64,000 nt of DNA from a virus (IMGVR_UViG_3300037459_000160:40669-104668), one strand, 5' to 3'. Counted from the stretch's first letter, positions 7,813-63,947 are shown. Numbers and translations: made by a program. Notes: generated from the letters alone by a model not told the origin.

Positions 7813-7828
7813 GTGAAACCGGGTTCAC
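7813..7828. repeat. 16-bp quasi-palindrome, copy 1 (GTGAAACCGGGTTCAC)
   Basis: Exact reverse complement of GTGAACCCGGTTTCAC; intergenic, upstream of a promoter-like sequence. Confidence 0.9.
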
Positions 7829-7854
7829 TTTTTGAAAAATTTGTGTGTTAGGTA

Positions 7855-7883
7855 TTGACAGTTGGGGCAATACCAGCGAAAAT
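7855..7883 (+). promoter_or_regulatory. Putative sigma70-like promoter for the protease/capsid genes
   Basis: TTGACA-17 nt-GAAAAT in an AT-rich intergenic region. Confidence 0.5.
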
Positions 7884-7922
7884 TTCCAAGATTCTAAATT
7901 TTCTTGCCGAGGGTAACGGATT

Positions 7923-9524
7923 ATGGCGGCTCCCATACGTGAATTGCTGCATATTACCGCCCCCATTGCGTTTCAAGTTGAGGGCGAGGGTGAGAACAAG
8001 CCAATTCAGCGGGTTATCGTTAAAGGGTTCGCATCGGTAGAAACCGGCGATCGTTCGGGCGACATTGTTCCACCTGAGGAATTCAACATTGAAAGGTTTA
8101 TGGCAGCCCCTACGCTTTTGCTCAATCATCGGTTTTGGACCGATCCAATGGGCAACCGGGTTGCAATCGGTCGGCCTCTCACAATGAATCCGGTTAAGCT
8201 CGGCAAGATAGCCGGCGACGATGATAATTGGGCAATCATCGACTTAAAAACCAAAAAACAAATTGATAAGTTTCCAAAGGTCAAGGTACCCGATTTGAAA
8301 GCGGGCAGCCGTGGCCTTTTTATTACGGCTGAGATAACGGTACCGGAAGTTGCCGGGATGGTTGTACGCGGTGAGCTTTCCGCGTTTAGCTGGAAGGGCA
8401 TGACGCTTGTTGAGTTTCGTTTCAATACGAAACTCGGGCGTGTCGAGCGGGTGTTATTGGATATCGACCTTTTTGAGGTTTCTTTAACACACGTTCCCGA
8501 TAATCCTGATTCAACACTTATCGTGGCAAAAGCGGTCAAGGAAATTATTCTTGAGAAAAGCCGGTTTGAGAGTCGTGAGCAAGCTGTTGCATACATGAAT
8601 CATCACAATTTAACCGGGGCCGTTCGCGAGGACGAGACCCGGTTTTATTCGCGTTTGTTGGACCCCTCGCGGATTGATAACGAAAAGCTCGTTACCGCAA
8701 AAATGGCCGAGGGTGTAACGGCGATTGTTGGACCGTTACATAATCCCGGTGAGTGGCTGTTTGGGGATTTGCCGCAAGAGGAACGCGAAAGGATCAACAA
8801 TCTTTACGATGCATCCGATACCGTTTCGGGTGCCGATTCGGATTCCGTTGATACGGAGGGCTCAAGTATGAGCGACACGGCACAAGCCCAAGACGCGGGA
8901 GCCGAGGTTACGGCAACCGATGCGGGCGATAAGGAAACGAAAGAAAAGGCCGGGAATTTGGGCGGTGCTGGTGGTGCTGGCGGTGCGATTTCCGGTGACG
9001 ATAAAGAAGCGAAAACGAAAGCCGGGCATAAGGCAGTTGCGGCCAAGTCCAATGATGAGGCAATGGGGGCATTTGCCTCGGACATTGCCACACAAACGGC
9101 GGCTGGAGTTGTGAGCGGTCTCAAGCCCGTGTTTGAGGCTCAAACGGTGGCCCTCGCGACAATGGGCACGCTGATTGAAAAGATGGCCGGGGGAGTTGAC
9201 GCGGGAGCCGAAACCCCGAGCGAACAGAAACCGAAAACGGAAACGGAAACGGACGACCTTGCCGCACAAGTGGCAAAGCAAGAGGCCGCGAAAACCGCGA
9301 ACCTCAACGATGTTATGGGTCAACTCAACGCATTGGCTGACGGGTTGCAGCAAACCCAACAGGCCGTTGTAACCGTCGCGAAATCGGCGGCAGCAATGGG
9401 GGCTCAAATTCCCAACGCGGCCGGCTCACGTTCCGAGAAACTTCCGGCTGAGAAATCAGTTGAGGAAGGCGACGATCCGAACGATTGCTTTGACAATACG
9501 TTTGGATTCCTTGGGGGCCAATAA
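7923..9524 (+). CDS. Prohead protease (HK97-like) with C-terminal scaffold region
   Basis: KGFAS...DRSGDIV, LLLNH, ELSAFSW, DLFEVSL..VP.NP motifs, then an acidic/Ala-rich coiled-coil tail; lies upstream of the MCP. Confidence 0.9.
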   Translation: MAAPIRELLHITAPIAFQVEGEGENKPIQRVIVKGFASVETGDRSGDIVPPEEFNIERFMAAPTLLLNHRFWTDPMGNRVAIGRPLTMNPVKLGKIAGDDDNWAIIDLKTKKQIDKFPKVKVPDLKAGSRGLFITAEITVPEVAGMVVRGELSAFSWKGMTLVEFRFNTKLGRVERVLLDIDLFEVSLTHVPDNPDSTLIVAKAVKEIILEKSRFESREQAVAYMNHHNLTGAVREDETRFYSRLLDPSRIDNEKLVTAKMAEGVTAIVGPLHNPGEWLFGDLPQEERERINNLYDASDTVSGADSDSVDTEGSSMSDTAQAQDAGAEVTATDAGDKETKEKAGNLGGAGGAGGAISGDDKEAKTKAGHKAVAAKSNDEAMGAFASDIATQTAAGVVSGLKPVFEAQTVALATMGTLIEKMAGGVDAGAETPSEQKPKTETETDDLAAQVAKQEAAKTANLNDVMGQLNALADGLQQTQQAVVTVAKSAAAMGAQIPNAAGSRSEKLPAEKSVEEGDDPNDCFDNTFGFLGGQ

Positions 9525-9611
9525 TTCCCAAGGGAAACCTTAACTTCTAACCTTTGCGGTACCCATAACGGACCCGTTTCACTTATCCGTTTTCGCAAAG
9601 GATTTTTTCCG

Positions 9612-10619
9612 ATGAGTATGGATGCACAAATCAAACTGCCTCTGAAGCAATTGATGGAGAAATCCGCGATTGATTCAAGCAGTCTGCCGAATTCAATAAT
9701 GAACCGGCAGCAAGCAAACCGTTTTATTGACCTTGTGGTTGATGAATCGGTCTTGATCAAAATGTCTCGGGTTGTTAAAGTCAATCACCCCAAGGGTGAA
9801 ATCAACAAACTTGACCTTGGCGATATCGTTACCGAGGGAGCCCACACAACGAGCCGGGCAACAACGCGAACCCCGAGCGAGAGAATCGTAACGTACGATA
9901 TGGAAAAATATCGTTCGGCGTTCGATTTGAAAACCGATTTCATGGAAGATAACCTTGAGCGGGCCGGTATCCGCGATACCCTCTTGCAAATGTTTAGCAA
10001 GCGGATTGCGATTGATACCGAGCTTGCCGCAATCGAGGGTGACGATTCGTTGACGACCGGCGACGGTCAAACCGATGAGAACAATTTGTTGGGCGTGAAT
10101 GACGGCTGGCAAAAAATTCTCGAAAACGCGGTACCGGCCGCCCAACAGCTAGACGCGGCCGGGTTTGCCCCCTCCAAGCGGTTGTATTACGATATGAAAC
10201 GGCTCATCCCGAGCCGGTATCGTGCGGCCAAGCCGAATTACACTTGGGTTACGCCCTCGGGGCCGGCCGACAAGTGGGCCTTGGATTGGAGTGACCGCGA
10301 AACGGCGGGCGGTGATCGGGCGTTGGCGACTAACCAACGGCCGGGGCCTTGGGGAATCCCAATGCTTGAGGTTCCGTTGATGCCGGAAAACCTGCCCTTC
10401 GGTACGAGCGGCGTCGATGGTTCGTCAATCTGGTTGACCCCGTTGAAAAACCTGATTTACTTCATTCAACGGGAAATCACGATTGAGTTTGACCGGCAGC
10501 CCCGGCAAGACGTTTGGGAAGTGACCATCCATTTCCGCGTCGATTTCGAGGTTGAAAACGTGGATTTGGTCATTTTGGCCAACAACGTTTCAATGAGTGG
10601 CAACGACTATACCGGCTAG
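9612..10619 (+). CDS. Major capsid protein (HK97 fold)
   Basis: 335 aa after the protease; QANRFIDLVVDES, F.EDN.E, D.ELAAI.GD, NDGW.K, LTP.KNLI, R.DF..E motifs; followed by a terminator. Confidence 0.92.
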   Translation: MSMDAQIKLPLKQLMEKSAIDSSSLPNSIMNRQQANRFIDLVVDESVLIKMSRVVKVNHPKGEINKLDLGDIVTEGAHTTSRATTRTPSERIVTYDMEKYRSAFDLKTDFMEDNLERAGIRDTLLQMFSKRIAIDTELAAIEGDDSLTTGDGQTDENNLLGVNDGWQKILENAVPAAQQLDAAGFAPSKRLYYDMKRLIPSRYRAAKPNYTWVTPSGPADKWALDWSDRETAGGDRALATNQRPGPWGIPMLEVPLMPENLPFGTSGVDGSSIWLTPLKNLIYFIQREITIEFDRQPRQDVWEVTIHFRVDFEVENVDLVILANNVSMSGNDYTG

Positions 10620-10660
10620 AACCCGGTTTTGAGCCTTTGCCGCGTGTACGGAAAACCGCG

Positions 10661-10705
10661 AGGCTCGGCAAGGCCCCTTTTAACCTTGCCGAGCCTTTTT
10701 TATTT
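10661..10705 (+). terminator. Rho-independent terminator after the MCP
   Basis: 13-bp stem AGGCTCGGCAAGG/CCTTGCCGAGCCT followed by a T run. Confidence 0.85.
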
Positions 10706-10713
10706 GGTGAGAT

Positions 10714-11949
10714 ATGTTGCCCGAGGGAATCCAACAGATCGAAGCCCGCGAAGTGTTGCGGACGTTGCCCGAGAACGTTACAGGTAAAAAGATTGCCTTA
10801 CGTTTGACGGGTGGGGTTGGCGATGCTGTGATTGCAATTGGGGGCGTTGCGTATGCGTTGCGTAAAGAGGATTGCCAAATTACGGCGGCCGTAATGCCTC
10901 ACCAAATTCCGTTAATGTTGGAAATGGTGGGCGTTGATAAGGCAGTTGAGGGGAGATTACTTAACCGTCCCGACATTTGCCAAAAATACGATTCTATCGT
11001 TTCATTCTCGGGCGTGTTCAATTCCCATCGGGAGTTACGGGCGGGAGGGTATTACAACCTTGTGAGCGACCGTACGGGCCTCAGGGTGGGGCCCGGCAAG
11101 TTTGCCTTTGAGCCAATTGCTCAACCGCGTGCGAGCGAGCGTACGGGCGTTCTCGGTCGTATACCGTACAAAGTGCGACGGGTAGCGATGCACCCAGGTT
11201 CAAGTAACCCGAATCGTTGTTGGGTATCCGAGCGTTGGCGAGAGCTTGCGTATGAGTTGCGGGACCGAGGGTGTAAAATCCTTTGGTTAGGTACTCGCGA
11301 TGAGATGGGGTTTAATGCCGAGGGTATTTCCAAGATGAGCGACGAAACCGAGGATTTGGTTTTACAAGCCGAAGTCCTCGGGAATTGCGATTACTTCATT
11401 GGCAACGATTCGGGTTTTGCTCACATTGCGGGCGTGTTGAATGTGCCCGGTCTTGTGCTGTTTTTTAGTACAGCGGCCGAGGATGTAATACACGCATACC
11501 CAAGATTGAAAGGTGTTGACGTTTACGAACGGTCAAACGTTAAGCCGAGCCGAAGTTTGAGCCAAGGTTGTAAGGTTGCCGAGGTAGCACAACAGGCGAT
11601 GAGTGTTGCCGATGTTTTGAAGGCAACGGGCCTTTATTCGGTTTCCCCGAAACGCGGTTCGCGTACGGAGGGTAAAGCCGTGGCAATAAAACTCGCGATT
11701 CTCGGGCAACCCGAAAATCCAACTTTAACCTTGTTGCGGGATTTCCTTATCAAGCACAATTACGAAGTGAAGCTATTGAGAAACGCCCCGACGCATGGGA
11801 TGGAATTCGATTGTTTTATTTTATTGACCGGCAGCCGGTGCCGTTTGCAGGTAAAGGGTACGAGTGTTGCCGTTGATATCTCCAACCTTGAGAACGTTAG
11901 GCGAGCAATTCGCGAGTTGCTCCTAAGGGGCGATGATGAGCAAACTTAA
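10714..11949 (+). CDS. Glycosyltransferase family 9 (heptosyltransferase-like)
   Basis: GGVGDAV, MHPGSS...RCW..ERW..LA, FIGNDSGFAHIAGVL..P motifs of GT9. Confidence 0.85.
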   Translation: MLPEGIQQIEAREVLRTLPENVTGKKIALRLTGGVGDAVIAIGGVAYALRKEDCQITAAVMPHQIPLMLEMVGVDKAVEGRLLNRPDICQKYDSIVSFSGVFNSHRELRAGGYYNLVSDRTGLRVGPGKFAFEPIAQPRASERTGVLGRIPYKVRRVAMHPGSSNPNRCWVSERWRELAYELRDRGCKILWLGTRDEMGFNAEGISKMSDETEDLVLQAEVLGNCDYFIGNDSGFAHIAGVLNVPGLVLFFSTAAEDVIHAYPRLKGVDVYERSNVKPSRSLSQGCKVAEVAQQAMSVADVLKATGLYSVSPKRGSRTEGKAVAIKLAILGQPENPTLTLLRDFLIKHNYEVKLLRNAPTHGMEFDCFILLTGSRCRLQVKGTSVAVDISNLENVRRAIRELLLRGDDEQT

Positions 11950-12424
11950 AGATGCGATGCAAGCGATACGGGAAACGCCCCGATCGGCCATTGGGGATAT
12001 TGAGGAATTAACGGGCCGGCTGGATGAGGCCGAGACCGCAAAGCGGCAAGCCTTTTTATTTTTGCGGGGCGTTATTGAGTTGGCCCCAGTGGCCATTATT
12101 GTTTGCGATTGTGAGGGGAAGTTTAAGGTTTGGAACGAAAAGGCAAATGAACTTGTTGGGGATAAGCCCAAAGACGTACCCCCCGAGTTTTGGCCCCAAG
12201 CGTACCAACTTTTTGACCCTTCCGACCATACGAAATTGATTGAAAAAGCCCCGCTAGCCGAGGCCCTTGAGACCGAGCGAGAGGTACACAAGTTTATGTG
12301 GATCGGTAATGGTTCCCGCCGATTGGTTGAGTGTGTTGCCCGGCCCGTTTATTGTATTCAAAGACTAATTGGGGCCGTGGTCTACTTCAAGGAATCGGAA
12401 ACTCATGACCGACGATCCTTTTGA
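11933..12424 (+). CDS. Stand-alone PAS domain protein with N-terminal coiled coil
   Basis: VIELAPVAIIVCD.EG....WNEKA.EL.G ... ARPV....LIGAVVYF is a PAS-fold pattern. Confidence 0.8.
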   Translation: MMSKLKDAMQAIRETPRSAIGDIEELTGRLDEAETAKRQAFLFLRGVIELAPVAIIVCDCEGKFKVWNEKANELVGDKPKDVPPEFWPQAYQLFDPSDHTKLIEKAPLAEALETEREVHKFMWIGNGSRRLVECVARPVYCIQRLIGAVVYFKESETHDRRSF

Positions 12425-12683
12425 CTTGGAAGATTCCGTACCGATTCGCGAGGGAATGGTTGGCGATAAAAGTTGGCAGGAATACCGGCGATTGATTTTA
12501 TTTGAGTTGAAACGCCAACACAACAAACAAGAGGCCCTTGATACGGCGGTACAAGCAATCAACCAATCGCTCACCGTTTTGAAAACCAAAGCCGCTATGT
12601 GGGGAGCCTTGGCCGGCTTGTTAGTCGGTACCGTGGTTACGATCGTTGGCGGCCTAGTAATTCACACATTGACGACCCATTAA
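12405..12683 (+). CDS. Small coiled-coil protein with a C-terminal transmembrane helix (holin/XhlA-like)
   Basis: Coiled coil followed by hydrophobic AAMWGALAGLLVGTVVTIVGGLVI; likely start ATG 12405. Confidence 0.55.
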   Translation: MTDDPFDLEDSVPIREGMVGDKSWQEYRRLILFELKRQHNKQEALDTAVQAINQSLTVLKTKAAMWGALAGLLVGTVVTIVGGLVIHTLTTH

Positions 12684-12695
12684 GGGAGAAAACAA

Positions 12696-12995
12696 ATGGT
12701 TGCAACAGCCGGCACCGCCGTAACCCTAGCGGCGAGCCCCGCACAAACTCAATTTTTTGATGACCCGGTTGGAGCAACCGAGGTTTTCGTTAAGAATGTG
12801 GGGGCGAACGTGGCCGAAATTCACGTACCGGGCTTGCACGCGGACGGGGATTTTTTCCCGATTGCGGTTGGGGCCGATTGTATTTTCCGGCTTGACCATA
12901 TGGGTATTCGGAAAATATTTGGCCGAGGCGTTGGCGGTACAACCGATGTTGACTTTGGCGTTAAGTCTAAGACGTTCCCACACGGTACTAATTAA
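12696..12995 (+). CDS. Hypothetical virion protein (small beta-rich)
   Basis: SD-like AAGGGAG upstream; 99-aa beta-strand-rich ORF in the structural module. Confidence 0.65.
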   Translation: MVATAGTAVTLAASPAQTQFFDDPVGATEVFVKNVGANVAEIHVPGLHADGDFFPIAVGADCIFRLDHMGIRKIFGRGVGGTTDVDFGVKSKTFPHGTN

Positions 12996-13005
12996 GAGTG
13001 CGGCA

Positions 13006-13359
13006 ATGGTTTTTGTACCGACAACAAACCTATTTCCGCGAACCTCAATTTTGGAATACGGTGCAACGGGAAGTGTTGCGGATAACACATTAACAACCGT
13101 TTTATCGTTTACCGTTTTGGGTTCGCCCGCGTTTATTGACGCGATACACGCCGGGGGCAATTTGCCCGCGTGCTTTTCTCTCATTGTGAACACGATTCTA
13201 AAACTTGACTTTCAAAATTCCCATACGGAGCGAACCAAAGCCATAACATTGCCAGCCCCTCAACGTTTTGCGGTTGGCGATGTTGTGGATATTAAGGTTG
13301 AACATTTTCAGGTAGGGAAAAGCGGGATCTTTACGGCAACCATTTTTGGGCATCGGTAA
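13006..13359 (+). CDS. Hypothetical virion beta-sandwich protein
   Basis: Likely start ATG 13006 (MVFVPTT...); shares a pattern with the 13680 C-terminus and with 14884. Confidence 0.6.
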   Translation: MVFVPTTNLFPRTSILEYGATGSVADNTLTTVLSFTVLGSPAFIDAIHAGGNLPACFSLIVNTILKLDFQNSHTERTKAITLPAPQRFAVGDVVDIKVEHFQVGKSGIFTATIFGHR

Positions 13360-13361
13360 TC

Positions 13362-13673
13362 ATGGGCGATTTGGTACGGGCTGGCTTTCGGGCCGATATA
13401 ATTCAAGCAAACCCCGATTTGTATTTGAGGCACGCTAAAATACAACTCAATGAAAAGGATTCGCAAGTTGCATCGTTGAACGCTCGCATTTTGGCAATGG
13501 AAACCGTTGAGCTTGAAAAACTTAGGTTGCAACTTTCGGTGTTTGAAAAGGAACAACAGGAATTACGGGAACAAGTACGGAGTATTGCAACGGAGTATGC
13601 AAGTGAACTTGCCGGGCTTGAGTCCGGTGTTGTTGATGCCGAATTCACCGTGAAACCCGATTCAAAAGGATAA
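13362..13673 (+). CDS. Hypothetical coiled-coil protein
   Basis: Heptad pattern; tight gene packing. Confidence 0.6.
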   Translation: MGDLVRAGFRADIIQANPDLYLRHAKIQLNEKDSQVASLNARILAMETVELEKLRLQLSVFEKEQQELREQVRSIATEYASELAGLESGVVDAEFTVKPDSKG

Positions 13674-13679
13674 TCTCAA

Positions 13680-14660
13680 ATGTCAGATTTTGATTCCGCA
13701 CAACCTGTTAGGCTTAATGACGGTACTAACGATTTCGGTTTTGTTATCGGTACCCCGTTTTTCGTGACCATTGCGGACGCGGGCGGGGATCAAATCGAAA
13801 TTGACGCGAGCGGCCAACTTGGCGTTGTAATCGGCTCGGGGCCGGCCGACATTGGAAAGGCCGAGGATTCGGTACACGTAACCGGCGATGTTGGCGTTGG
13901 CCTGTTGGCGGTTCGCCAAAGTGTCCAAGCCGATTTGGCCCCCGATGGGGATTACACGTTTCCCACAATCGACGACTCGGGAGGGCTTCGCGTTTCCATC
14001 GTTGCGGGGAGTGCGGGGGGAGCCTCGGCCGTTGATGATTCGGTGTTTACGATTGGCGTTGATAACGTGGCCCCGGCCGGTTATCTGGCCGATGAGACCG
14101 CGACCGATTCGGTTGATGAGGGCGACGTCGGGTTGGCCCGGATGACCCTTGACCGAAAGGTTTTGCATGTTCTTGTTGACCCGACAACCGATGCCAACCG
14201 GGCAGCGATTGACGCGAACGGGAGCCAACAAGTTTTGCTTTTCGGCTCACTTGATCCGACTTCGGTTAATGCCGATGATAACCCGATTTTCGTTCAAGTG
14301 GTGACCGGGGCGACAAGCTCAACGGAAATCAACGACTTTAACCAAGCGGTGGGCGTTGCCGCGATGGGTGGAACGGCCACGCACGCATTGCCTGTATCGG
14401 CAGCCTCAACGCTTCTATTGCGTTCGGTTATCTTTGCGGGTTCGGGCTCGGGTAAGGTTGAGATTGCCCTTGGGCCGTTGGCGAGCGAGGTTACAAAGGC
14501 GGTTGCGTTCATTTCCTCGGCCAACCCGACGCGGCAAGTATTCTTTGATCCGCCGATTGAGCTTGTCTTTGCGTCCGATGAGCAAGTTTTGTTGACGGTA
14601 ACCAACCGCGATAACCAAGCCCAAGACCTTTACACAACGATTATCGGGGATGAAATTTAA
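13680..14660 (+). CDS. Hypothetical virion protein (decoration/fibre-like)
   Basis: 326 aa, Asp/Gly/Val-rich, with internal repeats (EDSVH..GDVG / TDSVDEGDVG) and a C-terminal beta domain. Confidence 0.7.
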   Translation: MSDFDSAQPVRLNDGTNDFGFVIGTPFFVTIADAGGDQIEIDASGQLGVVIGSGPADIGKAEDSVHVTGDVGVGLLAVRQSVQADLAPDGDYTFPTIDDSGGLRVSIVAGSAGGASAVDDSVFTIGVDNVAPAGYLADETATDSVDEGDVGLARMTLDRKVLHVLVDPTTDANRAAIDANGSQQVLLFGSLDPTSVNADDNPIFVQVVTGATSSTEINDFNQAVGVAAMGGTATHALPVSAASTLLLRSVIFAGSGSGKVEIALGPLASEVTKAVAFISSANPTRQVFFDPPIELVFASDEQVLLTVTNRDNQAQDLYTTIIGDEI

Positions 14661-14669
14661 GCCCCTCAA

Positions 14670-14685
14670 GTGAACCCGGTTTCAC
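14670..14685. repeat. 16-bp quasi-palindrome, copy 2 (GTGAACCCGGTTTCAC)
   Basis: Intergenic exact copy. Confidence 0.9.
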
Positions 14686-14707
14686 AGTAAACGAAGTAAG
14701 GAAAGAA

Positions 14708-14887
14708 ATGAGTACAGGAAACGAAAACGAAAAGGGAACCCCCGAGTCTAGAGTAAATTCGATTGAGTTAAAGCCGGGGAACGAATTGATTGTTTTAATT
14801 CGGCTTGTGGAGCAACTCAATGCGAATGTTGTCGGGCTCCAAACGATTCTTTCCGAGTTTATCGGGGAGTTGAGAAATCCTAAATGA
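14708..14887 (+). CDS. Small hypothetical protein (59 aa, missing from the ORF track)
   Basis: AAGG upstream; MSTGNENEKG...ELRNPK; its TGA overlaps the next ATG (ATGA). Confidence 0.6.
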   Translation: MSTGNENEKGTPESRVNSIELKPGNELIVLIRLVEQLNANVVGLQTILSEFIGELRNPK

Positions 14888-16031: not shown

Positions 16032-16033
16032 GC

Positions 16034-16564: not shown

Positions 16565-16833
16565 GCGGCCGAGCCCGGTTTTTGCTGTTGGGTTGGTTAA
16601 ACGCTCCCCCCGTGGAACGGGGTACGGCTTGCGGAACAATCACAATAAAGAGAGTCGGCGGGGGAATTACTTTGACACAACCGGGCGGCCGAATTGATTT
16701 ACGGCCAAGGATTGGCGGGGAGTTGGAAGCTATTCGCAAGGAATCCCGCGTTGGTGGCGATGTAACAATACAATCCCGCATTGGTGGAACCGTTCACATA
16801 AGAAAATGTGAGGAATCGGATACGTGCGAGTAA
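16561..16833 (+). CDS. Hypothetical protein with (R/P)xGG beta repeats
   Basis: Repeats RVGG/QPGG/RIGG/RVGG/RIGG at about 10-aa spacing; ATGA overlap. Confidence 0.55.
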   Translation: MSGRARFLLLGWLNAPPVERGTACGTITIKRVGGGITLTQPGGRIDLRPRIGGELEAIRKESRVGGDVTIQSRIGGTVHIRKCEESDTCE

Positions 16834-16837
16834 GCCC

Positions 16838-17152: not shown

Positions 17153-17153
17153 C

Positions 17154-17873: not shown

Positions 17874-17876
17874 AAA

Positions 17877-18787: not shown

Positions 18788-18788
18788 A

Positions 18789-19289
18789 ATGGCCGAAGGC
18801 CAAGAAAATCTCAATCAAGCAATCGTTGAAAAGTTGCGGGCCGATACCGTCGCAACTATCGGCCTTGTTGCGTTGACAGGGCACGACCAAAGCAAGGCAG
18901 AGGGTTTCCGCATTGCACGACAAACACCCCCCGTTAAAAGCCGATTGCCGTTCTTAGGTGTTTCAATCTTTACAAGTATTCCGTTGATGGATTCGGACGT
19001 TTCGCAACTCCAACGAGCCCGCGTACATTTTCGTTGTTATGGGGCTAAGGAATTGCCAGCGATCAAACTAGCCGATAGAATGGAGCACTTGTTACACGGT
19101 AGGGCCGAGGATGTAAGCGTTGGAACGAATCGGGGTTATTATGATTTTTCCAACAGCGAAGTAAGTACACGAAGTACGAGATTTAAGAATCGAGATTTAC
19201 CGGATTTCGATGATGACGTTGATGCGTGGAACGTGCTCGTTGAGGCCGATTTGGTCTGGATTGATGAGCCCGGTTGCACGCAACCGTAA
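18789..19289 (+). CDS. Tail terminator protein
   Basis: Lies directly before the major tail protein; AIV..L.AD...LP(F)L pattern. Confidence 0.65.
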   Translation: MAEGQENLNQAIVEKLRADTVATIGLVALTGHDQSKAEGFRIARQTPPVKSRLPFLGVSIFTSIPLMDSDVSQLQRARVHFRCYGAKELPAIKLADRMEHLLHGRAEDVSVGTNRGYYDFSNSEVSTRSTRFKNRDLPDFDDDVDAWNVLVEADLVWIDEPGCTQP

Positions 19290-19316
19290 CCCCGATTCAA
19301 GAGGGAGTGTATTTCT

Positions 19317-20145: not shown

Positions 20146-20161
20146 GTGAACCCGGTTTCAC
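20146..20161. repeat. 16-bp quasi-palindrome, copy 3
   Basis: Intergenic exact GTGAACCCGGTTTCAC. Confidence 0.9.
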
Positions 20162-28488: not shown

Positions 28489-29946
28489 ATGAATGTGGAC
28501 CTATTAACAGCCGTGCGGAGTGAAACCGTAGAAACGAAACTCTTTCAATATGTGCCCTCGCGATCATCCCCCCGCATGGTCGAATTATTGCCCGAGGGTG
28601 AGATTGGACGCGGAGCCGAGGGGGAATTTGATTGTTGGAGCGTTGAGCCTCGCGGGGTCAACAAAACCCCAACGCTTGAATTTTTTAACGGGGCCAAGTT
28701 GGTATTTACAACCACACTTGATCACGCCGGAAATTGGAAAGGCCGAGACCGTACGAAAGGTACGGTTATGTTGAGGCCAATTACCAAGACTCCCGACCGT
28801 TGGAAGCAACTCGCGGACCCCGTAAGATTTTCGCAAACGCAAGCCCATCCCGACGTTGATTTACCGGATGGATTTGCGTTCTCGGATAAGTTGGCCGCTC
28901 AAATTGATTGGGCTCCATATCAATATAATCTTGCCGATCAACTTGACCAAAGTAAGCTCGTTAAAGCAAAAACGGCGGTTGCCCTTATCGGGTACAATCG
29001 CCCAACGTATTTCGGGCAAATGCTAAACGGGTTGAAGCAAAATCCTGAAATCCATAAGTTGCCTGTTTTTGCGTTTATGGATAGGACTACGCCCGAGCAA
29101 GAGACCACGACCCAAGCCCAACGCGAATTGCTCAAAGAACATTTGCCCCATGCGATCATAATTACACGACCCATTACCTTTGGGTGCGGGCGAAATATCA
29201 TTGATGCGAGGCGGCAGTTATTTGACAACCTCCAATATGAGCGGGTTTGGGTGTTTGAGGATGATTTCGTACCCGGCCCTAATTATCTTGGGGTTGTAAC
29301 GCGGCTTTTGGATTGGGGTGAAACCAATTACGGGAACGTTGGGGCAACGCAAGGTTGGGCCAAGTGTCATAAGAGCGTTGACGAAAAACGGGCGGTGTTG
29401 CGACAGGTTTGCGGTACTCACAATAATTGGTGGGGGTACCTGATGAGCAAACGAGCATGGGCCGCGATAAGTGCCCGCATTTATCGTTATGAAGAATTGT
29501 TCTTGGGTTCCCGAGACTACGGAACGCGGCCCCATAGCACAATCGCCCGTTGGTTTAGTCACCTTAGGCGAACGGCTCCCCTAGAGTTGCCCGGTCCCAA
29601 GTACCCGGTTGATGAGGCAACTAAAAAAGGGTCTCGCGGCTACTTCCAAGCCCCACCAACAGGCCAAGACGCGGTAACAATGATAACGTTTGAGCAAGCC
29701 GGTTTTGTGAGGCTTGCGACCGTTGTTAATCGCGGGGTGTACGTGGGTCAACAAGGGATTCATATGAATCCGGGGCAGTTTAGGCGGGCAGGGTATCACA
29801 ACGTTGAGTATGATGATTTTCCTGAGGATCGGCAAATAAGTGCATTTACCCCTCGCGGAGTGAACCCGGTTGCACCCGAGCCCGAGCCCGAGCCCGCCGA
29901 TGAAAATATTCCCGAGGGAATAGGAAGGCCGGCCGATGGGGGTTGA
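28489..29946 (+). CDS. GT-A fold glycosyltransferase (GT2/GNT-I-like) with N-terminal extension
   Basis: LIGYNRP.Y, F.F.D, FGCGRN, VFEDD motifs. Confidence 0.8.
   Translation: MNVDLLTAVRSETVETKLFQYVPSRSSPRMVELLPEGEIGRGAEGEFDCWSVEPRGVNKTPTLEFFNGAKLVFTTTLDHAGNWKGRDRTKGTVMLRPITKTPDRWKQLADPVRFSQTQAHPDVDLPDGFAFSDKLAAQIDWAPYQYNLADQLDQSKLVKAKTAVALIGYNRPTYFGQMLNGLKQNPEIHKLPVFAFMDRTTPEQETTTQAQRELLKEHLPHAIIITRPITFGCGRNIIDARRQLFDNLQYERVWVFEDDFVPGPNYLGVVTRLLDWGETNYGNVGATQGWAKCHKSVDEKRAVLRQVCGTHNNWWGYLMSKRAWAAISARIYRYEELFLGSRDYGTRPHSTIARWFSHLRRTAPLELPGPKYPVDEATKKGSRGYFQAPPTGQDAVTMITFEQAGFVRLATVVNRGVYVGQQGIHMNPGQFRRAGYHNVEYDDFPEDRQISAFTPRGVNPVAPEPEPEPADENIPEGIGRPADGG
29860..29875. repeat. 16-bp quasi-palindrome, copy 4 (GTGAACCCGGTTGCAC)
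   Basis: Lies in the low-complexity 3' end of the GT gene. Confidence 0.8.
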
Positions 29947-34980: not shown

Positions 34981-35823
34981 ATGGATACGAACCTTGCCGG
35001 ATTCTTAACCGCTCCCCAATTCCGTACAGCCTCGCGGGATGCGGCGTTTTGCTATCTGCTAATGAGGGCAGATATTGCCCTAAGTGAAACTCAAGTTTCG
35101 CGGGCTTTCAAAGAACGTTCCGAGCTTGTATCCGGTTTAAGTGTTTCAACCATTGCCGAACGTGCGGGGCTCCCCGAGATTACCGCCCGGCGTTGCGTTG
35201 ATGAGCTTGTACGGGCCGGTTGGGCTCAATCGGTAAACTTGACCGGGGGCGACGTTGCGTATCGTCTAGGCGTAATTCAGGGCGGTCAAGAGGGGTACTA
35301 CGCTTACGGGGTGCAACCGGGTTCGCCCCGAGCGAGCGACAGCATACGCGAACACTTGGGAAAGTGTAAAGAGGAAATCGCCGGGCTTGAATCCCAACAG
35401 CGGGCCGAATCCCGTAAGCGAACAAATAAACCCCGTGAGCCCGTTAAGAATGACCGTAACGAATTTATTGAACGGTTTCAAGCTGAATACGAAAAGCGAT
35501 ATGGTGAGATCCCAACCGGGTTTGATACTGGAAATTTCGGGAAACCCTCGGGTAAAATTTATGCTAACGCTTCCCAAGTAATTGAACACGCGGGGGATTT
35601 GAATAAAGCGACCGAAGTTATGCAATTCGTTTTTGAAAATTGGTTGGGATTGCAACAGGCATACGGATTCGGGGGTACGCCCGGTATAGGGTTAATGGCT
35701 CACCCGAATTCGTTTGCTTTGTTTCTTGATTGTCTGAGGGGCGGGATTAAGAAAACTCAAAAGGGTATTGGGCAACGGGGGCAAGGCGTTGATTGGGAGG
35801 GTGTTGCAAATGAATACGAATAA
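34981..35823 (+). CDS. Winged-HTH replication initiator-like protein
   Basis: S..TIAERAGL...T.RR.V.EL...GW HTH; upstream of a DnaC-like ATPase. Confidence 0.7.
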   Translation: MDTNLAGFLTAPQFRTASRDAAFCYLLMRADIALSETQVSRAFKERSELVSGLSVSTIAERAGLPEITARRCVDELVRAGWAQSVNLTGGDVAYRLGVIQGGQEGYYAYGVQPGSPRASDSIREHLGKCKEEIAGLESQQRAESRKRTNKPREPVKNDRNEFIERFQAEYEKRYGEIPTGFDTGNFGKPSGKIYANASQVIEHAGDLNKATEVMQFVFENWLGLQQAYGFGGTPGIGLMAHPNSFALFLDCLRGGIKKTQKGIGQRGQGVDWEGVANEYE

Positions 35824-40674: not shown

Positions 40675-40690
40675 GTGAAACCGGGTTCAC
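40675..40690. repeat. 16-bp quasi-palindrome copy (GTGAAACCGGGTTCAC) upstream of polA
   Basis: Intergenic exact copy. Confidence 0.9.
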
Positions 40691-48249: not shown

Positions 48250-48767
48250 TGGAAACGCTCAAATACCTCATTGATAACTTTGACCGATCGGTTGTGGTCA
48301 TCCGTTCGGGTTATTTATTTCTGGACATTAAGCCCCAAGCAAAGCAAAGCGTTTCGTTTGGTCAAGGCCGAGCATTTATACCAAAGAAAAAACGCGAGTA
48401 CCTTGCGGCCCTTGCCAAGCAGATATACATAAAATGGAAAGGCCCAAAGATTGCGGGCCGCGTGCGGCTCACGATTGTTTATGCTTTTCCGTGGCCCCAA
48501 AAGGAAAGAGCGATGCAAGCCCTGGGTTGGAGCCTTACCGATCATAGGATTGACCTTGATAACTTACTGAAGCCCGTCAAGGATTCTTTGAGCGATATCG
48601 TTTTTGGTGACGATTGCCAAGTTGTTGAAGTGAAAGCCCGAAAAATTCGATACAGCCGGCCAGCTATCGGGATGAAAATTGACGAAATCCGGGGCCTCTC
48701 AATGGAAAATCTTGTGAACCCGGTTTCACTTGAAACCCGAGAAAAATACGGGTTTTATCGTGGTTGA
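48249..48767 (+). CDS. rusA: RusA Holliday junction resolvase
   Basis: D.DNL.K...D.L....F.DD.QV motif. Confidence 0.9.
   Translation: METLKYLIDNFDRSVVVIRSGYLFLDIKPQAKQSVSFGQGRAFIPKKKREYLAALAKQIYIKWKGPKIAGRVRLTIVYAFPWPQKERAMQALGWSLTDHRIDLDNLLKPVKDSLSDIVFGDDCQVVEVKARKIRYSRPAIGMKIDEIRGLSMENLVNPVSLETREKYGFYRG
48714..48729. repeat. 16-bp quasi-palindrome copy in the rusA 3' tail
   Basis: Exact GTGAACCCGGTTTCAC. Confidence 0.9.
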
Positions 48768-50551: not shown

Positions 50552-52048
50552 ATGCCGAACGCGGGAACCTTGAGTGAGCAAAAGAAACCTCTTTTCTTAC
50601 TTTTCAAAACGGGCCCCGAAAAATTCCATGTTTTTCAAATCGTTGGTTGGAAAGCCCGGATTGAACATTTCGTTGAGGGCACCGCCCCCAGTACCCCGAG
50701 TTGTGATTGTCAACTATTTCGGTTTGAATCCAAGTGCCCGCATACCGAGGCTATCGCTACCGAGGCCGAAAAATGGGCATATGCTTTCAACGATTTGCGA
50801 TCGGCCGGGAAGCCGATTAAATGGCAAGAGGGCGACGATAAAAAATTTGTTGTGATTGCCTACCAAGGTAAGGCCGGCGAACCCGCCGTTGTACACCCCG
50901 AGGTAGGGGATTTGAGTTTGTTCAACTTGGTTTGGCTGTTGACCGAGGGCCCAACAACTTCCGAATTAAAAAGCCCCACGGGCTTTCTCAACCCCGAGCG
51001 GATCTTTGAGGAAGCGAAAAAGAGTTTTGACTTGTCCGCGACGGTTACCGACACTGATGTTATTGCAGCGGGCAAAGCCGTTAAACCTCTCACGGCCGCC
51101 GATGTACAATTTGAGGCCGACTACGATGAGAACCTTGGGGCAATGATCCCCGGTGAAAAGGAACCCGCTACTCCCAAGAAAGGCCGCAAGAAAACGAAAA
51201 CGGAAGTTGCGAAACCTTGGGAAACGATCAAGCGACCCGACCCAAAATCGTTTTACATTCCCGAAAAGTCTTGGAAGCAACTCTTGTACGGGATGGCAAA
51301 GGGCCAAAATATTATGATTATGGGCCCGGCCGGCAGTGGCAAGAGCGAGATTGTGTATATTGGAGCCAGGGCAATGAGTCTTGACCTTGCCGCGTTTAAT
51401 TGCGGGGCAATGAGCGAGCCCCGCGAGGCGTTGATTGGTACGACGATTTATGACCCGGCCAAGGGTACATGGCACCGTGAGGCCCGGTTTGTTAAGGCCG
51501 TGCGAGCCGATCGGGGTGTTGTGCTGTTGGATGAAATGAGCCGAGCGGTACGGGATGCGTTTAACATTTTCCTCCCGTTGTTGGATCGGCAAGGGTATCT
51601 CGCAATGGATGAATCCGAGGATGGGGGCATTATTAAAAAGGGGGCTGGCGTTTCATTCGTGGCGACTGCCAACGTGGGTCTTGAGTACACGGGAACCGAG
51701 GCGTTAGACAAGGCCCTTAAAGAGCGTTTCCGCATAATCCGTATGGGTTTTCCCCCGAGAGAGTGGGAAACCAAGATTCTTGTCAATCGTTGCCCCGGTC
51801 TTAAGGCTGGCCAAGCAAGCCGCCTTGTGGGTATTGCCGAAAAGCAACGCGAGTTGGCCACCCTTGAGAATGAATTTGTTGAACAAATTTCTACGCGTAT
51901 GCTACTTGCGGCCGGTGAGCAAATCGGCCTCGGCTTTACGTTCGATGATGCAATTGAATTCAACATTGCCAATCTTTTCTCGGATGAGGGTGGGGATGCA
52001 AGCGAGTACACCCGAATTATGCAAATCGTTCAAAAAGGCGGAGAGTGA
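50552..52048 (+). CDS. MoxR/CbbQ-type AAA+ ATPase with N-terminal SWIM finger
   Basis: CDC..F....KCPH; GPAGSGKS, LLDE.SR, ATAN, LD.AL.ERF, ISTR.LL. Confidence 0.9.
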   Translation: MPNAGTLSEQKKPLFLLFKTGPEKFHVFQIVGWKARIEHFVEGTAPSTPSCDCQLFRFESKCPHTEAIATEAEKWAYAFNDLRSAGKPIKWQEGDDKKFVVIAYQGKAGEPAVVHPEVGDLSLFNLVWLLTEGPTTSELKSPTGFLNPERIFEEAKKSFDLSATVTDTDVIAAGKAVKPLTAADVQFEADYDENLGAMIPGEKEPATPKKGRKKTKTEVAKPWETIKRPDPKSFYIPEKSWKQLLYGMAKGQNIMIMGPAGSGKSEIVYIGARAMSLDLAAFNCGAMSEPREALIGTTIYDPAKGTWHREARFVKAVRADRGVVLLDEMSRAVRDAFNIFLPLLDRQGYLAMDESEDGGIIKKGAGVSFVATANVGLEYTGTEALDKALKERFRIIRMGFPPREWETKILVNRCPGLKAGQASRLVGIAEKQRELATLENEFVEQISTRMLLAAGEQIGLGFTFDDAIEFNIANLFSDEGGDASEYTRIMQIVQKGGE

Positions 52049-52060
52049 ACCCGGTTTCAA
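52045..52060. repeat. 16-bp quasi-palindrome copy (GTGAACCCGGTTTCAA)
   Basis: 15/16 match; overlaps the AAA gene stop codon, upstream of a promoter. Confidence 0.85.
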
Positions 52061-52087: not shown

Positions 52088-52116
52088 TTGACCCGACCCG
52101 ACCAATTTGCTAGAAT
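52088..52116 (+). promoter_or_regulatory. Sigma70-like promoter with extended -10
   Basis: TTGACC-17 nt (ending TGC)-TAGAAT. Confidence 0.7.
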
Positions 52117-56807: not shown

Positions 56808-57021
56808 ACGCGGGTAGTGTAAAGAAAATCGGTCAAGTCTAGCGAACGGGTTTGCTGATTTGAACGATACTAGCGATGAGGGAAGCCCGGTTGTACGTCA
56901 AAAACCTCATGGGGTTTTAGGTTGCAACCTTGGTAAGTGTGAGCCGGGCGGAACAAATCGACAGTTGGTAGCATAACTCCCTTTTCGGGTTTAGGTGTTG
57001 GTTCAAGTCCAGCCCCGCGTA
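56808..57021 (+). ncRNA. tRNA-like RNA 2 (214 nt, UUU anticodon-like) with about 140-nt D-loop insertion
   Basis: Acceptor ACGCGGG/CCCGCGT, U8A9, D stem GTGT/GCAT, anticodon arm AACTC-CCTTTTC-GGGTT, T arm GTTGG-TTCAAGT-CCAGC. Confidence 0.7.
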
Positions 57022-57033
57022 CTTTTAATTCCA

Positions 57034-57049
57034 GTGAACCCGGTTGCAC
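57034..57049. repeat. 16-bp quasi-palindrome copy (GTGAACCCGGTTGCAC)
   Basis: Intergenic, immediately after tRNA-like RNA 2. Confidence 0.85.
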
Positions 57050-63029: not shown

Positions 63030-63033
63030 GGAA

Positions 63034-63348
63034 ATGGGCGAAAAGGAAGTCTTGGAGGAACAGTTAGAGCTTTTACGAACCCAAATACGTCAAAAGACGC
63101 ATGAGATACGACGAACCGGGGGTTTTCGAGTTATTGTGTGCGATGGGTGCGGGGATCGTGACCTTGTGTTGGTTCAACTGAGGGATGAGCTTTGGAGGCA
63201 GCTTTGCAAGTTTCCGAAAGAGTTGCTTTGCTTGGAGTGTATGGAAAAGCGTTTGGGGCGGTTGATCGTAAGAACCGACCTTAAAGAATGCGGCGGCCTT
63301 CGAGAGTTGGAAATGGGTTACAAAATACTCAGTCGGAAGGGCGAGTAA
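63034..63348 (+). CDS. Small zinc-binding protein
   Basis: CDGC...D.LW...LC..C.E.RLGR....D pattern. Confidence 0.65.
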   Translation: MGEKEVLEEQLELLRTQIRQKTHEIRRTGGFRVIVCDGCGDRDLVLVQLRDELWRQLCKFPKELLCLECMEKRLGRLIVRTDLKECGGLRELEMGYKILSRKGE

Positions 63349-63349
63349 A

Positions 63350-63589
63350 GTGGATAAGTGGTTCTTTTTGGTCGTTAGCAATGACATTGATCCCGAGCTT
63401 TACACCCTTACAGAGCAAAACGGAAAAGTCCTATTATGGCGGACTGAAGATCAAGCAATGAAATGGGCAAAAACTGAGGTAAGGCTACCGAAGGGGCACG
63501 GGCTCCACACGGTGCGAATGCCTACTACGGTATTAAAAATGGAGCAAGCGGGAAACCCAAGAGTGCTAAGGGAGAAAAGAAATGGGTGA
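63350..63589 (+). CDS. Hypothetical protein
   Basis: GTG start; packed ORF. Confidence 0.5.
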   Translation: MDKWFFLVVSNDIDPELYTLTEQNGKVLLWRTEDQAMKWAKTEVRLPKGHGLHTVRMPTTVLKMEQAGNPRVLREKRNG

Positions 63590-63782
63590 GGTTACCGAGC
63601 TTATGTTGGATGGTATCCTTTGTGATCAATGCGGCGGTTTCGTTTCCGAAATTGGGGTTGGTTATCCTCGGACTTGTTCGGCTTGTCAAAAGCATCCTTT
63701 GGCACCGATAAGAACCGTTGTTCCGGTTCCGATTTCGGCAAAGAAAAGGCGTAGAAATCGCAAAAAAGGGCCGAAAAAGTAA
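63582..63782 (+). CDS. Small zinc-finger protein with basic tail
   Basis: MGE...M.DG.LC..CG.......GYPR.C..C; SD AGGGAG. Confidence 0.65.
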   Translation: MGEVTELMLDGILCDQCGGFVSEIGVGYPRTCSACQKHPLAPIRTVVPVPISAKKRRRNRKKGPKK

Positions 63783-63810
63783 GTTACTTTTGGAGCCACA
63801 ATTCCCCCCC

Positions 63811-63845
63811 ACATAGTTACATAATCATAGATTATGTAACTATGT
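63811..63845. repeat. Perfect 16-bp AT-rich inverted repeat with 3-nt spacer
   Basis: ACATAGTTACATAATC-ATA-GATTATGTAACTATGT. Confidence 0.9.
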
Positions 63846-63931
63846 AACACGCAAGGGGTTACGCGGGCGGGCGTATGATTTTTTCGGCTGATAACGCACC
63901 TTGGCCGTATGTCCGATATGGTCCATTTCGA

Positions 63932-63947
63932 GTGAAACCGGGTTCAC
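63932..63947. repeat. 16-bp quasi-palindrome copy (GTGAAACCGGGTTCAC)
   Basis: Intergenic exact copy, extended by flanking GA/TC. Confidence 0.9.

Follow-up and report, generated by a model that had tools for sequence, protein, structure and literature searches.

The question raised by the 64,000-nucleotide stretch of viral DNA analysed here (the window) is what function is served by a 16-bp near-palindrome that recurs along the genome, and what reads it. The window forms the final 64 kb of a 104,668-bp virus record (G000) that is estimated to be 84% complete and carries about 172 genes, all on the plus strand, with 92% of the DNA coding. The motif, GTGAACCCGGTTKCAC, occurs eight times in the window (the exact sites and G variants of Table 1) against 0.00 expected from 100 shuffled sequences. 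The remainder of the record adds nine copies, and about 20 are found over 104.7 kb when at most two to three mismatches are allowed. One half of the motif, CCGGGTTCAC, is invariant across these copies, while the other half reads GTGAAA, GTGCAA, TTGCAA or TTGAAA; the flanks are not conserved except for an A preceding the motif, and the sites are single and form no iteron clusters. A previous sequence-only reading of this DNA had listed the copies in the window, and all of its coordinates are correct, including those of the imperfect copies at 52045, 35311 and 19264.

Table 1. Copies of the near-palindrome, associated promoters and the candidate binder gene (window coordinates)
Feature	Coordinates	Strand	Context
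Exact site	7813..7828	-	Directly after stop of gene 7504-7812; -35 of a TTGACA-17-GAAAAT promoter 26 nt downstream
Sigma70-like promoter	7855..7883	+	Downstream of site 7813, ahead of 533-aa head gene
Exact site	14670..14685	+	47-nt gap after 326-aa gene 13680-14660; 22 nt before next start codon
Weak copy, doubtful member	19264..19279	+	2 mismatches to K pattern; final 26 nt of a gene
Exact site	20146..20161	+	Upstream of tail-chaperone-like gene 20205-20573
Site, G variant	29860..29875	+	87 nt before stop of gene 28489-29946
1-mismatch copy	35311..35326	-	Between the two domains of the wHTH initiator (gene 34981-35823), codons ~111-116
Exact site	40675..40690	-	Immediately before DNA polymerase gene
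Exact site	48714..48729	+	Last 54 nt of RusA gene; hairpin after; 144 nt upstream of g143
g143, candidate binder, 359 aa	48874..49953	+	Predicted ParB/Spo0J/Noc/KorB-type DNA-binding domain, ~residues 102-244
Site, last base A	52045..52060	+	Overlaps stop of MoxR-like ATPase gene; -35 of a TTGACC-17-TAGAAT promoter 27 nt downstream
Sigma70-like promoter	52088..52116	+	Downstream of site 52045, ahead of VWA-domain gene
Site, G variant	57034..57049	+	12 nt after tRNA-like 3' end; 24 nt before next start codon
Exact site	63932..63947	-	Non-coding right end of record

About 15 of the sites in the record lie between genes and the others within the final 4–99 nt of genes, as had been proposed for most of them from the sequence; the copy at 35311 is the only one deep inside a gene. 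Counted more strictly, 12 of 19 sites overlap non-coding DNA (binomial P=1e-7). The distances between neighbouring sites range from 2.0 to 10.1 kb with a coefficient of variation of 0.42–0.43, a spacing far more even than chance (P≤1e-4) under uniform, gene-end and gap-only null models alike, in a test of regularity such as had been proposed earlier. Five sites are found 22–33 nt upstream of strong promoters, one (site 748 of the record) directly downstream of a TATAAT, and others are far from any promoter; some sit between a terminator and the next promoter. The promoter at 7855..7883 is the top promoter match in window positions 1–20000. The promoter-linked sites are out of helical phase (centres at about -66 to -77), and five consensus early promoters have no site. 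The earlier view of a genome-wide site in both orientations, rather than a local operator, is supported, and the motif keeps no fixed distance to transcription starts.

Each related phage record examined has its own dispersed palindrome, and the frame (G)TG-N4-CG-N4-CA(C) fits the palindromes of eight related records. The most frequent form, TGCAA-N4-TTGCA, reaches 49 copies in a genome and is common to phages of 39–56% GC. G001 carries TGCAA-ACGA-TTGCA 36 times, G006 carries TTGCAAACGTTTGCAA 49 times (44 of the 49 share one 12-mer core), G010 carries GTGCAAGCGCTTGCAC 26 times (22 copies are identical), G007 has 19 copies of its palindrome, G008 has ten of GTGCAKAYRTMTGCAC, and G003, with the most divergent motif, has seven of GTGTCCCCGGGGACAC; a reversed-pattern control gave only 0–2 matches. 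Significantly even spacing is found in G001, G006, G007 and G010 as well, and the sites of G001 and G002 lie mostly within genes. One position is kept, the junction ahead of the homologs of g114, a tail-chaperone-like gene: seven of eight genomes carry a site here, each in the version of that phage. In G001 this site follows a perfect TTGACA-17-TATAAT promoter and precedes the ribosome-binding site. The palindrome system is kept across the clade while the sequence of the site diversifies; of the conservation that the sequence-only reading had asked for, a cognate variant is present in every relative, and the exact motif in none.

The sites look like a genome-wide protein-binding network. The motif may well be the target of a phage-encoded, sequence-specific dimeric protein that acts across the genome, chiefly on transcription units, and g143 is its likeliest binder, a reading that we favour tentatively and with somewhat less than even confidence; we infer both the binding of g143 to the sites and the effect of that binding. 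Both parS and the Noc site are 14–16-bp palindromes with a central CG, an architecture shared by the sites described here together with a ParB-type helix-turn-helix dimer, which is predicted in our case. The resemblance to parS noted earlier is meaningful, since the candidate named first at that time, the gene at 48874, has a predicted ParB/KorB-type DNA-binding domain. The first 72 residues of g143 form a low-complexity basic and Pro/Ala tail, rich in Lys/Arg and with an RGRP motif, and its C-terminal part is helical. The predicted structure (pLDDT 87) was matched by Foldseek to ParB/Spo0J/Noc with probabilities of 0.94–0.99 at E-values of 0.06–0.5. VIA-align gave Z-scores of 9.6, 8.6 and 8.3 against the Spo0J-parS, ParB-parS and Noc-NBS complexes (99–115 aligned residues, rmsd 2.8–3.2; Spo0J-parS, 115 residues, rmsd 3.2). 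When 48,161 chains were scanned without bias, ParB/KorB was the only DNA-binding family above Z 5.2 (Spo0J 7.8, ParB-parS 7.4, KorB-operator, 1r71, 6.2), and the structural alignments span chain residues ~98–237 only, the DNA-binding domain. No match to g143 was found among PDB sequences. The assignment of a ParB-type helix-turn-helix is a moderate one and applies at the level of the fold, because the Pfam HTH_ParB model is negative for g143 and the Rubisco factor Raf1 scores equal to ParB against the g143 model.

Genetic context and covariation bear on g143 as well. A site precedes the gene by 144, 20 and 41 nt in G000, G001 and G006, respectively. Its helix RK[AS]xYL[IV]x[IM]Y is retained in five TGCAA-type phages and carries non-conservative changes in G003, G008 and L105, which have different motifs; the g143 protein of G000 retains the conserved helix positions despite the altered motif of that genome. 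Surplus changes at TGCAA-invariant columns were detected in all three motif-switched genomes (p 0.026, 0.0074 and 0.00023), without clustering of the altered columns in the putative DNA-reading helices, and in a fair covariation test g143 ranks third, behind the tape measure protein and TerS. Among 54 IMG/VR loci retrieved by g143 homology, 24 carry an exact TGCAA-N4-TTGCA, 13 of these in 2–9 copies, compared with 0 of 23 unrelated control loci and ~0.02 expected per 20 kb. Some of the motif-bearing loci encode g143 homologs of just 27–30% identity; this association might stem from shared phage ancestry and not from g143 itself. Vibrio phage Ares1, with a distant g143 homolog in a matching gene order, has no high-copy palindrome across 40 kb.

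In the mechanism that we envision, one g143 dimer would occupy each palindrome through a ParB/KorB-type helix-turn-helix domain and without a ParB CTPase domain. The sites are distributed about one per gene module, at module boundaries, beside some promoters and upstream of the gene for their candidate binder, and the likeliest effect of the bound protein would be a genome-wide control or insulation of transcription units: repression or a roadblock where a site lies between promoter and gene, and the marking of boundaries elsewhere, in the manner of KorB at the dispersed operators of plasmid RK2. Organisation of the phage DNA could be a further result of this binding; the location of the G001 and G002 sites mostly within genes fits poorly with a purely transcriptional role.

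By analogy, the KorB operator network is what this system most resembles. RK2 has 12 OB sites in 60 kb, and the density in G000, about one site per 5 kb, is the same. KorB uses a ParB-family DNA-binding domain and short dispersed palindromic operators at variable promoter distances to exert global control (PMC11790492). As in IncP plasmid RK2, the G000 palindromes are dispersed, stand at variable distances from promoters and include one at the candidate binder's own gene. In contrast, KorB requires a CTPase clamp domain and KorA for long-range silencing, its CTP-dependent sliding clamp being locked by KorA or TrbA, while g143 shows no CTPase domain; KorB also serves partition together with IncC, and in G000 no ParA-like partner was found and no KorA-like one is apparent. 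Furthermore, RK2 is a plasmid and G000 an apparently virulent phage whose type of operator diversifies between relatives.

Among phages, the closest likeness is to Cluster O mycobacteriophages, non-temperate siphophages with 17-bp dyad repeats (TGTTCGGNNNCCGAACA; 34 copies in Corndog) that are partly intergenic and partly coding, lie mostly off promoters, lack a meaningful orientation and have a dimeric protein as their predicted binder; these phages encode proteins with ParB-like domains (PMC4351075). These traits of the repeats, and the spread of high-copy palindromes through the genome of a non-temperate phage, are common to both (about 20 in G000 and 19–49 in relatives, which reaches the descriptive class of more than 30 copies), but the Cluster O repeat has a 7+3+7 layout in place of 6+4+6, the sequences differ, phages and hosts are unrelated, and neither even spacing nor diversification of the sequence across a clade has been reported for Cluster O. 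The likeness is a descriptive one and explains nothing alone. Cluster A stoperators and P1 C1 operators likewise place many operator copies in short intergenic gaps for genome-wide control; these sites are asymmetric and serve a temperate immunity repressor, and stoperators are oriented with transcription (PMC4351075). The G000 site, by contrast, is near-palindromic and present in both orientations on a one-strand genome, and the lysogeny genes searched for in G000 (integrase, S24 peptidase, HTH_3 repressor) were not found.

The alternative that survives best, though we regard it as unlikely, is that a different phage protein binds the sites and g143 is unrelated to them: TerS, the wHTH initiator or a poorly conserved early ribbon-helix-helix protein. 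TerS (an HTH protein, genome 38515-39147) would use the sites to label phage DNA for packaging; it gives the second strongest motif-switch signal in the covariation test, has TIRRWF in common between G000 and G008 as opposed to STVYRWL in TGCAA phages, and in G000 and L028 its gene, terS, is preceded by a site at ~100 nt. However, G003 retains a TGCAA-type TerS helix despite its most divergent motif, and single 16-bp palindromes are not a known target of TerS rings. For the initiator, the sites would be extra helicase-loading or origin sites. Its gene holds the only deep-coding copy in G000, and in TGCAA phages a site that encodes (V/L)Q(T/S)(I/L)A persists at codon ~55, although synonymous codons would be freely available; lambda O and SPP1 G38P, too, bind origin repeats that lie in the genes encoding them, palindromic ones in the case of lambda. 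The initiator had been a candidate of the sequence-only reading, and it does possess a wHTH, but its recognition helix varies equally within the TGCAA group and against G000 and so does not covary with the motif, its G003 homolog lacks the wHTH domain in a genome that has sites, and single sites do not make iteron clusters. A ribbon-helix-helix protein was confirmed among the early proteins (genome 8427-8774), yet such proteins are not conserved in the relatives. Of the further candidates from the same list, neither 57262 nor 55129 has a Pfam DNA-binding match, and an ORF near 46983 (window 46841-47056) has no Pfam match.

Distinctly less probable is that the sites serve as operators of a host repressor from the LacI/GalR family, which the phage uses or titrates, either as roadblocks like those formed by CcpA at cre or as decoys through which a host regulon is derepressed. 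The shared frame TG-N-AA-N-CG-N-TT-N-CA and its invariant central CG form the operator pattern of this family, as in cre (TGWAANCGNTNWCA), the pur box (ACGCAAACGTTTGCGT) and galOE (GTGTAAACGATTCCAC); the G006 core GCAAACGTTTGC equals that of the pur box, and the G010 motif resembles an ideal cre. The TGNAANCGNTTNCA palindrome with central CG is fully matched in G001, G006, G007 and G010 and by one half of the G000 site, and not in G003. No LacI-type HTH (PF00356) scored above cut-off in G000, G001, G003, G006, G007 or G010. Nevertheless, the motif is near-invariant inside each phage and sharply different between related phages, at the AA positions G000 and G003 do not follow the LacI consensus, and the occurrence of the TGCAA form over so wide a range of GC content indicates that the motif tracks the phage lineage, not the host.

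Partition had been entertained by the sequence-only reading; we consider it very improbable that a plasmid prophage is at hand whose dispersed parS-like sites and ParB-like g143 make up a true partition (centromere) system. Phage N15 has such dispersed centromere sites, g143 has the predicted ParB-type DNA-binding fold, and the sites have a parS-like architecture: the parS half-site GTTTCAC equals one G000 arm, and the CCGGG centre of the G000 site is similar to the Noc site ATTTCCCGGGAAAT. On the other hand, the G000 arms stand in everted order relative to parS, and searches of the record, with its completeness of 84%, detected neither the N-terminal CTPase (ParB/Srx) domain of ParB, which bears the GERRxR box (Pfam ParB_N, six frames of the whole record), nor ParA (AAA_31), nor an integrase, which argues against a canonical partition system; at this completeness, the absence of ParA is unproven. 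Centromeres are few or clustered, and parS and NBS sites cluster near the origin, whereas 20–49 sites are evenly spread in these phages, about 20 of them over 105 kb in G000. Moreover, the gene content (own replisome, RecA, exonuclease and two resolvases) suggests a virulent, recombination-dependent replicator.

The sites work as DNA and not as RNA, because they occur in both orientations in a one-strand genome, include stem-breaking arms and have no common RNA fold beyond 5 bp. Least probable of all is that the motif acts as an RNA or terminator part, a small hairpin that ends, stabilises or processes polycistronic transcripts: with all genes on one strand every site is in principle transcribed, site 40675 is embedded in a strong terminator-like hairpin (CCCCGAG...CTCGGGGTTTTT), site 20146, whose centre pairs with an upstream GCCGGGT, likewise forms part of one, T runs follow both, and the motif of the relatives would form a 6-bp stem with a tetraloop (followed by T9 in G008), but the G000 stem has only 5 bp with a conserved mismatch and is disrupted further by the G-variant arm, in 8 of 20 G000 copies a TTGCAC/TTGCAA arm makes the RNA stem impossible to keep intact, a U tract is absent from most sites, only 2–3 lie inside larger terminator-like hairpins, a promoter/terminator scan of window 1–20000 gave no excess of terminator-like sites, and what is conserved is sequence, not pairing.

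A bolder generalisation of the g143 reading, which we put forward as a rather unlikely one, is that a large, uncultured clade of one-strand siphophages marks its entire genomes with evenly spaced, parS-like palindromes that are read by a CTPase-less ParB/KorB-type protein diversifying in its specificity. If this were true, it would represent a phage 'self-marking' or chromatin-like system in virulent phages, one that coats or organises the phage DNA or distinguishes it from the DNA of host and competitors. The DNA-binding module of ParB would thereby have a new use, and the system might account for repeats of the Cluster O type.

The exact 16-bp pattern GTGAACCCGGTTKCAC occurs eight times in the window, at the very positions listed for it by the sequence-only reading, versus not once in 100 dinucleotide-preserving shuffles; when up to two mismatches are allowed, extra copies appear at window positions 52045, 35311, and 19264. 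The window corresponds to bases 40669-104668 of an IMG/VR virus record of 104,668 bp, and a scan of this full record of the studied phage (G000; linear class, with an estimated completeness of 84%) found about 20 copies. One half of the motif, CCGGGTTCAC, is invariant, the opposite half reads GTGAAA, GTGCAA, TTGCAA, or TTGAAA, and the flanks lack conservation except for an A preceding the motif. The sites are spaced far more evenly than expected by chance (CV 0.42-0.43; intervals of 2.0-10.1 kb; P<=1e-4 under null models of uniform, gene-end, and gap-only placement).

A simple codon-usage caller placed about 172 genes on the G000 record, every one of them on the + strand, and 92% of the record is coding. 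About 15 of the sites are wholly intergenic and the remainder fall in the final 4-99 nt of genes, the copy at window position 35311 being the only one deep within a gene; in three cases, the TGA of the motif supplies the stop codon or comes directly after it. The quasi-palindrome is found in both orientations, although all genes lie on one strand. By itself it could form a stem of only 5 bp that contains a conserved mismatch and is disrupted further by the G-variant arm, and folding of all sites revealed no common RNA structure. Larger terminator-like hairpins include just two or three sites, at window positions 40675 and 20146, and several sites are situated between such a hairpin and the following promoter. 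Because of its occurrence in both orientations, the lack of a common fold, and this terminator-promoter placement, we read the motif as a putative double-stranded protein-binding site rather than an RNA element. A tRNA-like 3' end (GGTTCAAGTCC...) is present at window positions 56960-57030, directly before the site at 57034; ARAGORN, run on the window, identified no tRNA.

G000 possesses a family of strong sigma70-like promoters whose upstream and spacer sequences are conserved. Its members (genome positions 3907, 14798, 15462, 16389, and 28572 (L032/L033), and window position 50476) have the form TTGACA-16/17-TATAAT-like, with a common A-rich upstream element and a common spacer, TTTCCGGGTTCGG, that includes the 8-mer CCGGGTTC from the invariant half of the site. 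Five sites are located upstream of a -35 box (see the table), with centres at about -66 to -77, out of helical phase, and a class I activator reading was dropped for this reason. The site at genome position 748 closely follows a TATAAT element, five further consensus promoters have no site, and many sites are lodged within gaps of about 45 nt that leave no room for a promoter, the following start codon being only 15-45 nt away. Since the distance between site and start is not fixed, the motif does not behave as the operator of a plain local regulator, and the earlier proposal of a genome-wide system is upheld in this respect.

The exact G000 motif gave only single chance matches in IMG/VR, with no contig carrying repeats, and megablast with 20 kb found no cultured-phage match. 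Relatives were fetched via DNA polymerase, portal, TerL, and DnaB; they have the structural and replication core in common with G000 at 25-80% identity, and every one of them has its own dispersed palindrome (see the table; the reversed pattern, used as the control, gave 0-2 matches). A single frame, (G)TG-N4-CG-N4-CA(C), with a central CG that is usual but differs in a few or several copies, fits all versions except the CTCCAA type of contigs L028 and L105; in this frame, the G000 site reads G-TGMAA-CCGG-GTTCA-C. Even spacing is also significant in G001, G006, G007, and G010, and sites are significantly enriched in intergenic DNA in G000, G003, G006, G007, G008, and G010; enrichment is not significant in G001 and G002, where most sites are intragenic and occupy all three reading frames. 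At the junction preceding the homolog of the tail-chaperone-like gene at window positions 20205-20573, a position that follows the presumed tail tube genes, seven of eight genomes carry the site in the version particular to that phage; in G001, this copy has a perfect TTGACA-17-TATAAT promoter on one side and the ribosome-binding site on the other.

Coordinates of features in the G000 record and motif versions in related phage records
Feature	Position or length	Motif or remark	Copies
Promoter-linked site	genome 14749	22-33 nt upstream of -35	
Promoter-linked site	genome 28523	22-33 nt upstream of -35	
Promoter-linked site	genome 38411	22-33 nt upstream of -35; before terS/terL	
Promoter-linked site	genome 48481 = window 7813	22-33 nt upstream of -35	
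Promoter-linked site	genome 92713 = window 52045	22-33 nt upstream of -35	
Ribbon-helix-helix protein	genome 8427-8774		
wHTH initiator	window 34981-35823		
Holliday-junction resolvase	window 46473-46844	PHROG	
Cas4/RecB-like exonuclease	window 47227-48249		
RusA	window 48231-48767		
G001	58 kb	TGCAA-ACGA-TTGCA	36
G002	62 kb	TGCAA-N4-TTGCA	12
G003	80 kb	GTGTCCCCGGGGACAC	7
G004	21 kb	TGCAA-N4-TTGCA	4
G006	102 kb	TTGCAAACGTTTGCAA	49
G007	99 kb	GTGCAATCGATTGCAC	19
G008	79 kb	GTGCAKAYRTMTGCAC	10
G009	29 kb	TGCAA-N4-TTGCA	16
G010	58.5 kb	GTGCAAGCGCTTGCAC	26
L028, L105	partial	CTCCAA-N4-TTGGAG	4-5

Three readings of the motif's sequence were rejected. LexA, suggested by the GAAC-N4-GTTC core that the symmetric form contains, is contradicted by the variation of the motif among relatives, and a LexA-like protein was not found; the CCGG centre is not avoided as a restriction site would be (0.78 of expectation); and cleavage at CC by RusA does not agree with the centres in other phages, which are ACGT, GCGC, or TCGA. 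As a separate observation, GCGC is nearly missing from the whole G000 record (1 observed versus 313 expected) and from G001, G003, G006, and G007 (0-5 observed versus 58-319 expected), a pattern that resembles strong avoidance of an HhaI-type restriction site. G008 shows partial depletion of GCGC (29/143), and the count is normal in G010 (135/143), where GCGC forms the centre of the site; TCGA, too, is scarce in G000 (0.42 of expectation).

The most likely reader is g143, the protein encoded at window positions 48874-49953, which is conserved in G001-G003 and G006-G008 and is a candidate for a ParB/KorB-like DNA-binding fold that lacks the CTPase domain. The protein has no Pfam match, its family members give only Pfam noise, and its alignment profile matched no PDB sequence. 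A first structural model (7 sequences; pLDDT 64) already had ParB/Spo0J/Noc as its best match, and a second (55 sequences) reached a pLDDT of 87, with Foldseek probabilities of 0.94-0.99 for ParB/Spo0J/Noc at E-values of just 0.1-0.5. VIA-align superposed 115 residues on the Spo0J-parS complex at Z 9.6 (rmsd 3.2) and gave Z 8.6 for Caulobacter ParB-parS and 8.3 for Noc-NBS, falling to 3.5 beyond the ParB and Raf1 families. In an unbiased scan of 48,161 chains, the top matches were Raf1 N-domains (Z 6.5-9.4) and the ParB/KorB family (Spo0J 7.8, ParB-parS 7.4, KorB-operator 6.2, KorB 5.2), with no match above Z 5.2 outside these two groups. The structural alignment covers the DNA-binding domain only.

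A site precedes g143 by 144 nt in G000, 20 nt in G001, and 41 nt in G006. Exact TGCAA-N4-TTGCA is found in 24 of the 54 IMG/VR loci retrieved through homology to g143, 13 of them with 2-9 copies, and in none of 23 unrelated control loci (raw counts). Five phages of the TGCAA type preserve the putative recognition helix, RK[AS]xYL[IV]x[IM]Y, and in G003, G008, and L105 it is altered. In the switch test, which follows the covariation of protein changes with motif changes, g143 came third when the same four reference genomes were used; its changed columns are not clustered in the helices, G000 retains the conserved helix positions, and shared ancestry could explain the association between g143 and the motif. 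Vibrio phage Ares1 (L152) encodes a distant g143 homolog in the same RecA-exonuclease-RusA context and has no high-copy palindrome within 40 kb.

The neighbourhood of g143 deserves description in its own right. The recombination module at window positions 44681-48767, which includes RecA, has an identical order in Ares1, followed there by the g143 homolog. Genes for a MoxR/CbbQ-like AAA+ ATPase (window 50552-52048) and a VWA-domain protein (52159-54732) lie directly downstream of g143 and are conserved in G001 and G003 too. Elsewhere, a homolog of CsrA (E=2e-26 to the Pfam family) is encoded upstream of the window (L033:14238-14492 = genome 34238-34492), its G003 copy being 65% identical, and a 1539-aa ORF (window 2882-7501) with MuF-like head-morphogenesis and protease-like PHROG matches may be a polyvalent head protein.

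A host LacI-family protein could also read the sites, and we retain it as a rival because the common frame equals the LacI operator pattern; the near-invariant, phage-specific sequences, however, favour a co-evolving phage protein. Among about 50 phage proteins, Pfam and PHROGs named few DNA binders (a ribbon-helix-helix protein, the wHTH initiator, and TerS) and no binder of the sites. The initiator is attractive, as the sole deep-coding G000 copy falls in its gene and four TGCAA phages keep a site at about codon 55 of theirs (L058:8623, L059:8665, L068:5054, and L069:7918), which encodes the HTH residues (V/L)Q(T/S)(I/L)A; this implies that synonymous codons are constrained at the DNA level. 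Its recognition helix, however, does not track the motif, and the N-terminal wHTH domain, present in all other relatives, is entirely absent from the G003 homolog (L064:8848-9432; C-terminal domain only), where a site stands immediately behind the previous stop codon and 13 nt ahead of the ATG. Initiator iterons were discarded, as no cluster exists in or near the initiator gene; a contig with a gene for a g143 homolog has at least 14 dense CGTGTATGTATG-like iterons within 0.9 kb (L108:2690-3610), which may represent an origin. TerS shows changes common to G000 and G008, but TerS of G003 retains the TGCAA-type helix. Partition was one of the functions offered by the sequence-only proposal; in its canonical form, it is unlikely because ParA, a CTPase domain, and an integrase were not found in the 84%-complete record (Pfam ParB_N, HTH_ParB, HTH_3, Phage_integrase, AAA_31, Peptidase_S24, LexA_DNA_bind, LacI, and Tet_JBP were negative in all six frames), the sites are numerous and evenly spread, and the gene set looks virulent (DnaB, primase, PolA, RecA, Cas4-like exonuclease, two resolvases).

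We suggest that a phage-encoded protein, most likely g143, would occupy the palindromes as dimers at roughly one site per module and at some promoters, that of the candidate binder included; binding would control or insulate transcription units across the genome, and it may organise the phage DNA as well. Dispersed operators are already known from KorB, P1 C1, and the stoperators. The proposed genome-wide control resembles that of KorB, which works from dispersed operators (PMC11790492), but the G000 system lacks the CTPase clamp domain and a partner was not found. Cluster O mycobacteriophages offer a very close and unexplained parallel in their 17-bp dyad repeat (PMC4351075), likewise dispersed in virulent phages; the phenomenon is here extended across an uncultured clade. 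What our data add is the diversification of the site across the clade while it stays within one frame, its even spacing, and the conserved junction, together with a candidate reader of predicted ParB/KorB fold without the CTPase domain.

The sequence of the site thus diversifies among relatives, while its architecture and at least one position are retained. If confirmed, the proposed system would extend ParB-family biology to virulent phages, whose DNA it would regulate or organise on a genome-wide scale, and it would provide matched protein-site pairs with natural specificity switches that are useful for studying the evolution of DNA recognition.
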